DNA of 25,683 bases from Syntrophomonadaceae bacterium (GCA_007136165.1 SLHK01000121.1:1-25683), one strand, 5' to 3'. Numbered from the stretch's first letter, positions 11,378-14,302 are shown. Program-made: numbers and translations. The notes: generated from the sequence alone by a model not told the origin.

Positions 11378-11899
11378 TTATTTATCGAAAACGTAGACTT
11401 TTCCCGAATCCCTGAAAAGGATAAGGTTTTCTTTTGTACGGTGGGAGATGCCGGTTCGGGAAAGGTATTCCACTTCCCGTTCCTGGTCCGGGTCTTCCCC
11501 CTCCAGGAGGGTCAGGGCAAATTCCTCGTAATCGCTGACCACATTCTCGCCCAGCTCCACTGCCATGGTGGATGCCAGAAGGTTAATATCCTGAATATTC
11601 AAGGAATCTCCGTCAATAAAAATCTCGATAAAAGTGCACTTGCGAAATTTTCTTTTCTTAAAGGAAAGCTGGATGTCAAACCCGTCGTTTAATTCTTTGT
11701 AGACTTCGAAATAATCCTTGATTTTAACCTTGAGTTCTGCAAAATGGTCTTCCGCCAGGCTGCCCCGGTACATAAAGGTAAAAATATATGATTTAGTGGT
11801 GTTGTTAAACCTGATGGCAAATATTTGGGGGAACCTGACCAGAATTGAAACCAAAAAATCGATACAGGAACTGTCCGACGCTACCGCATCCGTTTTCAT
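11378..11899 (-). CDS. Hypothetical protein between rny and ymdB
   Basis: 173-aa ORF with GGAGG RBS, filling the gap between the rny terminator and ymdB. Confidence 0.8.
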   Translation of the reverse strand: MKTDAVASDSSCIDFLVSILVRFPQIFAIRFNNTTKSYIFTFMYRGSLAEDHFAELKVKIKDYFEVYKELNDGFDIQLSFKKRKFRKCTFIEIFIDGDSLNIQDINLLASTMAVELGENVVSDYEEFALTLLEGEDPDQEREVEYLSRTGISHRTKENLILFRDSGKVYVFDK

Positions 11900-11964: not shown

Positions 11965-11972
11965 CCCTGAAT

Positions 11973-12000
11973 AAAAAAAAGGTGTCTTGTAAAAGACACC
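11973..12000 (-). terminator. Intrinsic terminator of rny
   Basis: Perfect 8-bp stem GGTGTCTT/AAGACACC, 4-nt loop, 8 T tail on the minus strand. Confidence 0.85.
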
Positions 12001-12084
12001 TTACTTGGCATAATCTACTGCTGACTCGCGGATTATTGACGCTTACTTGGCATAATCCACGGCGCGAGTCTCGCGGATTACCGT
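12001..12084 (-). repeat. Degenerate tandem duplication of the rny 3' end
   Basis: 12001-12015 is identical to 12043-12057 (TTACTTGGCATAATC), and CTCGCGGATTA is shared. The copy reads ASIIRESAVDYAK* versus [14 protein letters not shown]. Confidence 0.85.
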
Positions 12085-13584
12085 TACTTTAATCTGTCCG
12101 GGATACTCCAGTTCGTGCTCAATTTTACTGACTATTTCCCGGGCAATTTTCGTGGACATGAGGTCGTCCACCCGCTCCGGTTTCACCAGGATGCGGATTT
12201 CCCGTCCGGCCTGGATGGCGTAAGATTTGTCCACCCCGTCGAAAGAGTCCGCAATATTCTCCAGTTTTTCCAGGCGCTTGATATAGTTTTCCAGCGTTTC
12301 CCTTCTGGCTCCCGGCCGGGCGGCGGATATTGCATCGGCCGCCTGGATGAGGGCCGCTTCCAGGGTCAGGGGCTCAAAGTCGCCGTGATGGGCGGCAATG
12401 GCGTTGATGACATTGGGCGATTCCTTGTATTTCTTGGCCAGGTCGGCGCCAATAACCACATGGGGGCCGTCCACCTCGTGGTCCACCGCCTTGCCGATGT
12501 CATGGAGAAGGCCGGCCCTTTTGGCCATATTGACATCCAGGCCCAATTCGGCAGCCATAACCCGGGCCAGGTTTGCCACCTCTATGGAGTGTTTCAGGAC
12601 GTTTTGCCCGTAGCTGGTTCTAAATCTTAACCGGCCCAGGAGTTTTACGATTTCGTTATGCAGGCCGTGAACTCCCACTTCAAAGGTGGCTTGTTCGCCT
12701 TCTTCCCTAATCTGTAACTCCACTTCCTGCTTGGCCTTTTCCACCATTTCTTCGATACGGGCAGGGTGGATGCGGCCGTCGGATACCAGTTTTTCCAGGG
12801 CAATCCGGGCCACCTCCCGGCGGATGGGGTCAAAACCTGACAGGATAACGGCCTCGGGGGTATCGTCAATAATCAAATCGATTCCCGTCAGGGTTTCCAG
12901 GGTACGGATATTCCGTCCCTCGCGGCCGATGATACGGCCTTTCATTTCATCATTGGGTAAGGACACCACAGAAACCGTGGATTCGGACACGTGGTCGGCG
13001 GCGCATTTTTGGATGGCCAGGGTAATGATGTTCCGGGCGCGTTTTTCTCCTTCATCCTTGGCTTGGGTCTCAATATCCTTGATCATAATTGCCATTTCGT
13101 GCTTGATCTCATCCTCGACGCGGCGCAGCAGGATGTCCTTGGCTTCCCCGCTGGTTAGGCCTGAAATGCGTTCCAGTTCCTTCAGCTGTTCGTTGTGCAG
13201 GTTGGTTAAATCTTCTTCCTTATTCTTTAGATCCTGTTCTTTTCTTTTAAGGCTTTCTTCCTTCTTTTCATTCTGGTCCGTCTTTCTGTCCAGGGACTCT
13301 TCTTTTTGAATCAACCGGCGTTCGATTCTTTGAATCTCGTTTCTTCTTTCCCGGTTCTCCCGATCCATTTCACTTCTTTGCCGGTGGGTCTCTTCCTTTG
13401 CTTCCAGGAGAGCCTCTCTTTTGGCAGCAGTGGCTTTCTGCTCGCCTTCCGCAATAATTCTTTTGGCTGCATCCTCGGCGGATGCAATTTTTGCCTCGGC
13501 AATGTATTTACGAATCAAATAGCCTATGGCAAAAGATAATACTGCAGCAGCCAGAACCAAAGCAATTACGGTATTTATTTGCAT
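12043..13584 (-). CDS. rny: Ribonuclease Y
   Basis: N-terminal TM, coiled coil, KH domain ([12 protein letters not shown]), HD domain (LLHDIGK). Start set at ATG 13584, 6 nt after AGGAGGTG. Confidence 0.98.
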
Positions 13585-13610
13585 CGTTTTCACCTCCTAG
13601 GTTCATGCAT

Positions 13611-13643
13611 AAATAAATAAAAGCCGTGTAGGATACACAGCTT
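13611..13643 (-). terminator. Terminator-like hairpin just upstream of the rny RBS
   Basis: AAGCUGUGUA-UCC-UACACGGCUU (10 bp including one U.G) followed by UUAUUUAUUU. Confidence 0.6.
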
Positions 13644-13785
13644 AACAAGATTACATAGACTTATACCGGATTAATTATTAGATTTTATTAAAATTAACAA
13701 AAATCTATATAATATAAATAGTGCTCCCAGCACGGTATAAGCTAATCCCTTAAGCTTTTCGCCTACAGAAAGGTCTTTCTACACC
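13615..13785 (-). ncRNA. Structured ~170-nt RNA in the rny leader (6S-like RNA or attenuator)
   Basis: Nested complementary segments 13627-32/13762-67, 13639-45/13750-56, 13647-53/13743-49, 13660-68/13733-41 and 13679-86/13700-07; sigA promoter upstream; terminator-like hairpin at the 3' end. Confidence 0.5.
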
Positions 13786-13792
13786 AATACTA

Positions 13793-13821
13793 ATTTTAAC
13801 TTTTTTTTGTGCCAGTGTCAA
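13793..13821 (-). promoter_or_regulatory. sigA promoter for the rny leader
   Basis: TTGACA (13821-13816), 17-nt spacer, TAAAAT (13798-13793). Confidence 0.8.
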
Positions 13822-13975
13822 GGTAAAAATAACCTGTAACCCCGATAGGCTCTATATTTATCAAGACTTTCAGCTGCAGCAGCAGGTTGCGGGTAATAAT
13901 CCTGGTGGGGCAGAGAAAGAAATCTTCAGGGAACAGCAAAAACGACCCGTCCTCATTTGTCCTCACGTTAAGGAT

Positions 13976-14108
13976 AATTAAGGGGACACCATACTTAATT
14001 CCACGATGCGAAATTAAGTATGGTGTCCCTGTAATTCCATAATGCGAAATTAAGTATGGTGTCCCTGTAATTCCATAATGCGAAATTAAGTATGGTGTCC
14101 CTGTAATT
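13976..14108. repeat. Palindromic REP-like element with 3 x 36-bp tandem expansion
   Basis: GGGACACCATACTTAATT (13983-14000) is the exact reverse complement of AATTAAGTATGGTGTCCC at 14012, 14048 and 14084. The 36-bp units start at 13996, 14032 and 14068; the first differs at 2 positions. Confidence 0.9.
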
Positions 14109-14140
14109 GTGTGCCTCAACGGCGGGTACAGTTGCACACA

Positions 14141-14169
14141 TTGACAAAAAAGGAGGTCTGGGTTAAAAT
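14141..14169 (+). promoter_or_regulatory. sigA promoter of tRNA-Trp
   Basis: TTGACA, 17-nt spacer, TAAAAT, ending 11 nt upstream of the tRNA. Confidence 0.85.
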
Positions 14170-14180
14170 ATATGAAGCGC

Positions 14181-14256
14181 AGGGGAGTAGCTCAATTGGT
14201 AGAGTGGCGGTCTCCAAAACCGTTGGTTGCGGGTTCGAGTCCTGTCTCCCCTGCCA
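14181..14256 (+). tRNA. tRNA-Trp (anticodon CCA), encoded CCA end
   Basis: Cloverleaf: acceptor AGGGGAG/CTCCCCT, D-arm GCTC/GAGT, anticodon arm GCGGT-CTCCAAA-ACCGT, T-arm GCGGG-TTCGAGT-CCTGT, 3' GCCA. Confidence 0.97.
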
Positions 14257-14267
14257 GTAAAGAAATT

Positions 14268-14302
14268 AGGCTCCACAAGGGATTGTGGGGTTTTTTTCTT
14301 TT
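14268..14302 (+). terminator. Intrinsic terminator after tRNA-Trp
   Basis: CTCCACAA-GGGA-TTGTGGGG stem followed by TTTTTTTCTTTT. Confidence 0.8.

Follow-up and report, generated by a model that had tools for sequence, protein, structure and literature searches.

The leader of rny, the RNase Y gene of this Syntrophomonadaceae bacterium, is likely a terminator/antiterminator switch with two exclusive folds, a zipped hairpin and an intrinsic terminator before the gene. Its sequence and predicted folds indicate that it is an uncatalogued zipper-type attenuator, absent from Rfam. In Gram-positive bacteria, most mRNA decay begins with RNase Y, whose dosage is critical; the leader probably sets the amount of this enzyme, the main mRNA-cutting enzyme of the cell. 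The sequence-only reading of this region had offered two options, a 6S-like RNA or an attenuator or autoregulatory leader. The results favored an attenuator leader, with RNase Y as a candidate input; the attenuator is borne out by conservation across the class, covariation between the antiterminator and the terminator loop, and near-equal fold energies. From the sequence, we infer that the terminator works and that the choice between the folds is regulated. Below, the window is the whole 25,683-nt stretch of DNA that was analysed.

Promoter, helices and terminator of the rny leader

We located rny on the minus strand (Table 1), with the Pfam domains RNase_Y_N, KH and HD in its product. The true start is the ATG at 13584 and the stop lies at 12043, giving a 513-aa RNase Y. 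The GTG at 13593 chosen by the ORF finder falls within the Shine-Dalgarno sequence GGAGGTG (13597-13591, minus strand). The consensus scan showed that the hexamers of the leader promoter are separated by a 17-nt spacer and agree with the consensus at 11 of 12 positions (13821-13793, minus strand), in line with the sigA promoter that had been proposed to start transcription about 200 nt before rny. Judged from the promoter spacing, transcription would start at about 13786. The full leader would measure about 202 nt and the terminated RNA about 173 nt, its 3' end being predicted from the sequence. We found no ORF with a ribosome-binding site within the leader that could encode a leader peptide. 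Metatranscriptome X16, from the same soda-lake sediment sample and the one RNA data set containing this organism, consists of contigs only and is silent on start, end and level; one contig matched exactly within rny (12392-12575) and none covered the leader.

The genes 3' of rny are a 173-aa ORF, ymdB and spoVS. The ORF (11378-11899, minus strand) belongs to a conserved family with the motifs NLLVSLLxRFPEI and AFREAGKVxVFDK. It had no Pfam or NCBIfam match and no PDB match at E <= 0.001, and its AlphaFold model (pLDDT 81) showed a double alpha-beta-beta unit. It directly follows rny in 25 of 30 class relatives and is also found after rny in Thermincola, Peptococcaceae, Desulfitobacterium and Negativicutes loci; it was not seen in Clostridium or Tissierella rny loci. 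We rejected it as an operon-encoded regulator, since it showed no tight co-occurrence with leader terminators. On the other side of the leader, a block of 36-nt tandem and inverted repeats (13976-14108) lies between the rny and tRNA promoters. Soda-lake metagenome DNA contigs covered this block at a summed depth of 480-2700, compared with about 42 on its flanks, indicating a multi-copy (REP-like) element in the genome or the community. The miRNA-like Rfam matches at 13976-14108 were rejected as chance hairpin matches. The divergent tRNA gene (14181-14253, plus strand, 66 bits) has a TTGACA-17-TAAAAT promoter at 14141-14169 and a terminator at 14268-14293, both on the plus strand.

Table 1. Position of the rny leader features in the window and the evidence for each.
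Feature	Position	Strand	Evidence
-35 hexamer TTGACA, rny leader promoter	13816..13821	-	consensus scan; same promoter in relatives
-10 hexamer TAAAAT, rny leader promoter	13793..13798	-	consensus scan
5' antiterminator (zipper) strand	13762..13779	-	folds; covariation with terminator loop in relatives
Weak local 5' hairpin, UUCU-G-UAGGC / GCUUA-A-GGGA	13746..13770	-	terminator-forced and growing-transcript folds
P1 outer helix, 5' strand, AGCUUAA + GGGAUUA	13743..13756	-	folds
P1 outer helix, 3' strand, UAAUCUU-G-UUAAGCU	13639..13653	-	folds
Static three-way core (P1 inner, P2, joiner, P3)	13659..13742	-	same in both folds
Helix 1, UGUAGG/CCUACA	13767-62 with 13632-27	-	minimum-free-energy fold
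Helix 2, AGCUUAA/UUAAGCU	13756-50 with 13645-39	-	minimum-free-energy fold
Helix 3, G/GGAUUA with UAAUCU/U	13749-43 with 13653-47	-	minimum-free-energy fold
Helix 4, (G)CUUAUACC with GGUAUAAG(U)	13742-34 with 13667-59	-	minimum-free-energy fold
Helix 5, UAGAUUUU with AAAAUCUA	13707-00 with 13686-79	-	minimum-free-energy fold
Intrinsic terminator hairpin, AAGCUGUGUA-UCC-UACACGGCUU, 10 bp, 3-nt loop	13621..13643	-	terminator scan; folds
Interrupted U tract UUUUAUUUAU(UU), predicted 3' end of the ~173-nt RNA	13611..13620	-	inferred
rny, proposed regulated gene	12043..13597	-	Pfam domains; sequence

The minimum-free-energy fold of the minus strand contained all five nested helices that the sequence-only reading had described, together with the mini-hairpin that it had placed in the internal bubble (GUGCU-GGG-AGCAC, 13733-21). 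Its claim that the G.U pairs work on one strand was also confirmed, with four such pairs found on the rny-sense strand only. The fold additionally contained an AUUAU/AUAAU pairing and an outer extension, GAAAG/CUUUU plus CC/GG, which covers the foot of the terminator 3' arm and continues over the first residues of the U tract. Within the zipper strand, the partner of UGUAGG (13767-62) is the loop of the terminator together with its 3' arm, and the partners of CC and GAAAG are the base of that arm and the U residues at the start of the tract. The core consists of the P1 inner helix (GCUUAUACC/GGUAUAAGU), the P2 hairpin at 13733-21, an AU-rich joiner containing AUAUAGAU, and P3, which reads AUUAU-A-UAGAUUUU ... 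AAAAUCUA-AUAAU (13713-13674).

The 10-bp terminator-like hairpin of the earlier reading was recovered at 13643-13621 with its U tract; the T-rich tail that follows reads UUUUAUUUAUUU, and the terminator lies 27 nt before the rny ribosome-binding site. Bases 13643-39 of the hairpin also belong to helix 2 and bases 13630-27 to helix 1, so that the rod and the terminator exclude each other as had been suggested. The last 5 nt of the P1 outer 3' strand (13643-39) thus double as the base of the terminator 5' arm. Three natural variants from soda-lake metagenomes (13646, 13669 and 13769) all fell on unpaired positions of the rod. The folding energy of the single sequence was unremarkable, with z = -2.4 for the minus strand and -3.4 for the plus strand. 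Since folding energy alone is only modestly unusual, the case against chance rests on conservation and covariation in relatives and not on the window sequence, which could not prove function by itself.

Two predicted folds of the leader

We calculated the energies of the two folds for a 176-nt transcript. The results showed -44.8 kcal/mol for the rod and -44.3 kcal/mol for the best terminator fold, with pair probabilities of 0.49 and 0.50, respectively. The core (13742-13659) was identical in both. The rod pairs 13779-13743 with 13653-13619, and in the terminator state the zipper strand pairs with the P1 5' strand in the weak hairpin 13770-13746. Folds of the growing transcript, which describe equilibrium and not kinetics, showed that this 5' hairpin persists until nt 146, that outer P1 is favored from nt 150 and that the antiterminator is favored from nt 160.

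The same balance was seen in the 29 relatives with an intact upstream flank. Their best non-terminator fold differed from the terminator fold by +0.4 +/- 4.2 kcal/mol on average, compared with +5.5 +/- 3.5 kcal/mol when the upstream part was shuffled. In the non-terminator folds, the terminator loop and 3' arm paired more than 40 nt upstream in 28 of the 29, and 2-10 nt of the terminator 5' arm were paired far upstream; about 55% of the antiterminator nucleotides were locally paired in the terminator-state folds.

We propose that the strong sigma-A promoter would start a structured RNA of about 173 nt with two possible final folds. For read-through (fold A), the static core (P1 inner, P2 and P3) would extend outward like a zipper. 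The P1 outer helix would take the first 5 nt of the terminator 5' arm, strand 13779-13762 would take the terminator loop, the 3' arm and the first U residues, and RNA polymerase, with no terminator formed, would continue into rny. For termination (fold B), the zipper strand would be captured in the weak hairpin 13770-13746, which would tie it to the P1 5' strand and act as an anti-antiterminator; the terminator (13643-13621) would then form, and transcription would end 27 nt before the ribosome-binding site.

Conservation and covariation in relatives

Comparison of the upstream regions of rny in relatives, which had been suggested as a check on the sequence-only reading, showed the leader design in 29 of 29 loci and covariation of its pairings. 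All 41 genomes of the relatives sample encode RNase Y, and 30 rny loci were fetched; one locus (L025) was cut by a contig end and excluded, leaving 29 with an intact upstream flank. All 29, from six families, had a near-consensus promoter, TTGACA(T)-17-GATACAAT/TAAAAT, located 190-330 nt upstream of rny. In each, an intrinsic terminator was also present, 24-68 nt upstream of the rny start (that of L021 was re-placed). These 24-68 nt fit no second promoter, indicating that rny depends on read-through. In one family relative, the syntenic copy is accompanied by another rny-like gene of 64% identity, behind which lies a fragment of the RNase Y N-terminus (G004:C137:1735-3926).

The order of parts was common to the six families: 5' strand, P1, P2, an AUAKAU-type joiner and P3 of variable length. 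In all six, the 5' strand is complementary to the terminator loop and 3' arm, the P1 3' strand continues into the terminator 5' arm (...UUAAGCUGUG or ...UAUAGCUGUG), and an AUAGAU/AUAUAU-type motif follows P2. We constructed a covariance model from one family (f3) alone, which scored 92-167 bits on the f3 leaders and found the window leader at 26.8 bits (E = 6e-5, filters off). Its second-best match (15.6 bits, E 0.03; 11970-12048, minus strand) is the terminator region past the rny stop and looks like a chance similarity between terminators. Searched against 149 genomes of the class, the model gave one match per genome, at rny, and 22 of the 23 belong to f3. BLAST with the window leader gave a single match in the genome that it comes from; the three other genomes of its family (f1) with rny assembled matched at rny with 73% identity. 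In the genomes searched, the element is thus single-copy and always adjoins rny. A metagenome pattern scan for f1-type leaders returned a truncated true relative of the same design (L113) and a chance match (L112).

The leader cores of five families (f1, f2, f3, f4 and f5) differ by more than 100 nt in length and align poorly. A MAFFT alignment of all families misplaced the 5' half and the core, and the f3 covariance model aligned other families mainly through P1 and the terminator. Because all-family alignments were unreliable, formal pair counts were confined to f3 and the cross-family tests were scripted.

The formal counts were made on a model-based alignment of the 22 f3 leaders. The results showed that 92% of the cells were paired, compared with 32-47% when partners were slid by 1-3 columns, and that the covariation score was 0.136 against 0.088 in shuffles, with 0 of 500 as high. 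The antiterminator helix was 88% paired and the terminator 98%. At the variable antiterminator pair (columns 24-183), U.G occurred 8 times, C-G 6 times and U-A 6 times. In P2, three of four pairs were changed on both sides. The lower stem of P3 was nearly invariant (6 of 10 pairs never vary) and the P3 internal loops were almost constant; the P3 tip and the P2 stem were free to vary. The equivalent of the weak 5' hairpin was 69% paired, which is weak conservation.

Across families, the pairing between the 5' strand and the terminator loop was kept while its sequence changed. It reads UGUAGG/CCUACA in the window and L113, UGUAGG/CCUGCA in L002, GUGCAG/CUGCAC in L003 and L004, and GUGUGGG/CCCRCAC in f3. 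The other loci showed GUGCGGAC/GUCCGCAC (L030), GUUCCG/CGGAAC (L028), GUUCAG/CUGGAC (L024, L032 and L035), GCAGGGUC/GAUCCUGC (L017), GUAGGAA/UUCCUGC (L005) and GUAGGAA/UUCCUAC (L012). Within f1 alone, one antiterminator pair goes from U-A through U.G to C-G. We then compared duplexes of each 5' region with its own and with foreign terminators. The test gave -11.8 kcal/mol for own and -9.4 kcal/mol for foreign terminators, and 0 of 10,000 permutations were as good; restricted to 16 distinct lineages and to the loop and inner 3' arm, the values were -10.1 and -7.4, with 0 of 20,000 permutations, although these permutation figures overstate the significance because related genomes are not independent. 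The 6-bp antiterminator core of the window itself did no better with its own terminator than with foreign ones (-7.6 and -7.4). It is not individually distinctive, and the covariation evidence therefore comes from the family and not from the window sequence. Nucleotide 13639 is U in the window, forming A-U in P1 and U.G in the terminator, and its equivalent in L002 is C, forming G-C in P1 and C-G in the terminator. Pairing is thus kept in both folds, indicating that both alternative partners constrain this base.

We also scanned a wider sample of 80 rny loci from diverse Bacillota, of which 76 had a recognisable promoter. This crude scan showed a leader terminator in about 25 of the 76. In 15 of these roughly 25, the loop and 3' arm can pair with transcript nt 1-30, examples being Thermincola, Oscillospiraceae and several MAGs; the zipper strand lies at the very 5' end in several lineages. 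No terminator was seen by the same scan in the Clostridium sensu stricto rny leaders of this sample. Two Clostridium leaders without a terminator (L040 and L050) carry a AAUAGAUA-type motif, resembling the joiner, 30-60 nt before the start. This motif may mark a site that RNase Y recognises or cleaves, or may be an AT-rich chance occurrence.

Related systems, candidate input signal and rival readings

By analogy, the closest mechanistic match to the rny leader is the zipper-type attenuator cATT of plasmid pLS20 and related conjugative plasmids, which lies within a leader of 456 nt that precedes the antitermination gene conAn1 (Gonzalez-Alvarez et al., NAR 2026, PMC13401043). cATT has a weak upstream stem-loop, a long imperfect stem and a terminator before the first gene; upstream complementarity to the terminator lets the stem zip over it, the two states are similar in calculated energy, and the antiterminator is the default (PMC13401043). 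The rny leader resembles it in having an intrinsic terminator just upstream of the first gene (as in 29 of 29 relatives), a long element kept in both states (the core), an upstream strand complementary to the terminator that co-varies in relatives (13779-13743 with 13653-13619), and near-equal energies (-44.8 and -44.3 kcal/mol). A counterpart of the weak stem-loop is predicted in the window at 13770-13746, with the moderate pairing of its f3 equivalent given above. Unlike cATT, the rny leader is chromosomal, about 173 nt long and placed before a housekeeping RNase gene. Its middle element is a three-way junction and not a single long hairpin, and its terminator is split between two strands, outer P1 capturing the base of the 5' arm and a distinct 5' strand the loop and 3' arm. 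The likeness lies in the logic of the parts, and no sequence relationship is claimed. To our knowledge, zipper-type attenuators have so far been reported only on conjugative plasmids.

The rny gene of B. subtilis offers a second comparison. It has a 164-nt 5' UTR transcribed from its own promoter, and RNase Y cuts this UTR, chiefly in the first 50 nt, thereby down-regulating its own mRNA (Korobeinikova et al. 2023, PMC10303841). This autoregulation works through mRNA decay, in which RNase Y cuts and RNase J1 trims, and the word 'terminator' is absent from that paper (PMC10303841). Both leaders belong to the same gene and have their own promoter, a considerable length and an AU-rich 5' part with a stem-loop, whereas the conserved feature here is a terminator/antiterminator switch and not decay. 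In Proteobacteria, the rne leader with its rne-II motif is a structured autoregulatory 5' UTR of the main decay-initiating endoribonuclease, RNase E, and serves homeostasis. The rny leader is likewise the structured leader of a main decay-initiating RNase gene; the RNase E mechanism, however, is post-transcriptional cleavage and not attenuation, and the enzyme is unrelated to RNase Y. Riboswitch expression platforms share the exclusive terminator and antiterminator and a junction-containing core upstream, but the rny leader has no aptamer sequence conserved across families and no Rfam match, and is tied to one gene. The only described control of RNase Y synthesis of which we know is post-transcriptional, in B. 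subtilis. Our literature search found no description of an rny attenuator, and rny is not mentioned in the C. difficile transcriptome paper.

As the input to the switch, we tentatively prefer, by analogy, feedback from RNase Y and/or 5'-end-dependent decay (RNase J1), although this remains well short of an expectation, and a small ligand or a dedicated RNA-binding protein that binds the conserved core has about the same chance. If the exposed AU-rich 5' tail and the zipper strand were cut or degraded, the terminator could form, and rny transcription would fall at high RNase activity. For feedback, the idea comes from the finding that B. subtilis RNase Y acts through the rny leader (PMC10303841), and it is favored by this precedent together with the position of the zipper strand at the very 5' end in several lineages. 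Direct co-transcriptional sensing of RNase Y is disfavored, since RNase Y is membrane-bound and the decision window lasts a few seconds. The full form of the idea, in which the leader is a ribonuclease-activity sensor whose antiterminator is destroyed by an RNase Y cut or by RNase J1 chew-back, leading to termination, is doubtful.

Feedback is one of several ways to account for the conserved parts. The near-invariant lower P3 is not explained by a pure zipper and hints at a binding partner. The conserved core (P1 inner, P2, the AUAKAU joiner and lower P3) might, as an aptamer, recognise a metabolite or a dedicated RNA-binding protein and, once bound, either stabilise the zipper or block it; only the sensor would then differ, and the attenuator reading would stand. 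The three-way-junction layout in six families, the contrast in the 22 f3 leaders between an almost invariant lower P3 with its internal loops and a varying P3 tip and P2 stem, and the motif after P2 in all families are consistent with such an aptamer, and the pLS20 authors likewise propose an RNA-binding protein (PMC13401043). We consider it unlikely, as the core sequence differs between f1-f5 over a length range of more than 100 nt, which is unusual for a metabolite aptamer. Furthermore, no Rfam family matched at E <= 10, the element is single-copy and serves one gene, leaving no regulon to hint at a ligand, and the sole operon-encoded candidate partner, the 173-aa ORF, does not track leader terminators. 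The switch might also not be regulated at all. The terminator would then be a constitutive partial stop on a very strong promoter, and the rod would serve mainly to keep 5'-dependent RNases away from the start of the read-through mRNA. Near-equal fold energies alone would let a constant fraction of transcripts read through, the analysis turned up no sensor, and pairing of the 5' region is known to stabilise mRNAs in Bacillota. A 5' strand that tracks a changing terminator loop in six families would be costly for a fixed leak, however, the energy balance is held about 5 kcal/mol closer than in shuffled controls, and a weaker promoter or terminator would serve equally, which together make a fixed stop quite improbable.

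The remaining reading makes the terminated RNA of about 173 nt a trans-acting small RNA, either 6S-like or an RNase Y decoy or substrate mimic, with its position before rny secondary. It would account for the strong promoter and terminator and for a stable rod with conserved inner parts outside the switch, and terminated riboswitch-derived leaders that act in trans are known. The 6S option of the sequence-only reading failed on inspection. Like 6S RNA (RF00013), the leader is about 170-190 nt long and forms an overall rod with an internal bubble, but its bubble carries a hairpin, giving a three-way junction, and the terminator at its 3' end overlaps the helices that close the rod. The Rfam scan that had been suggested as a check gave tRNA only for the whole window at gathering cut-offs, and a permissive scan of 13400-14300 gave nothing over the leader at E <= 10, 6S included. 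Genomes usually have one 6S gene, or two as in Bacillus; in this genome, a full-length 6S RNA was found on a different contig (G000:C164:2742-2918), scoring 97 bits where the cut-off is 46.4. With no RF00013 match, the genome's 6S elsewhere and the element never found away from rny, we rejected the leader as a 6S RNA. Dependence of rny on read-through, with no room for a second promoter, stands against any trans-acting RNA as well, and we regard this reading as very improbable.

The terminator/antiterminator switch thus remains the reading that we prefer. With a conserved switch before rny, many anaerobic Bacillota would set RNase Y levels by premature termination, and the rny leader would be a chromosomal, housekeeping-gene case of a zipper-type attenuator. 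The switch spans the whole class and is echoed in other lineages. If the leader does sense nuclease activity, the main decay-initiating RNase would be under homeostatic control by nuclease-triggered attenuation, which may extend to the terminator-bearing rny leaders in several Bacillota classes. The rny leader family provides a defined RNA for testing what signal controls RNase Y, including a co-transcriptional readout of nuclease activity.
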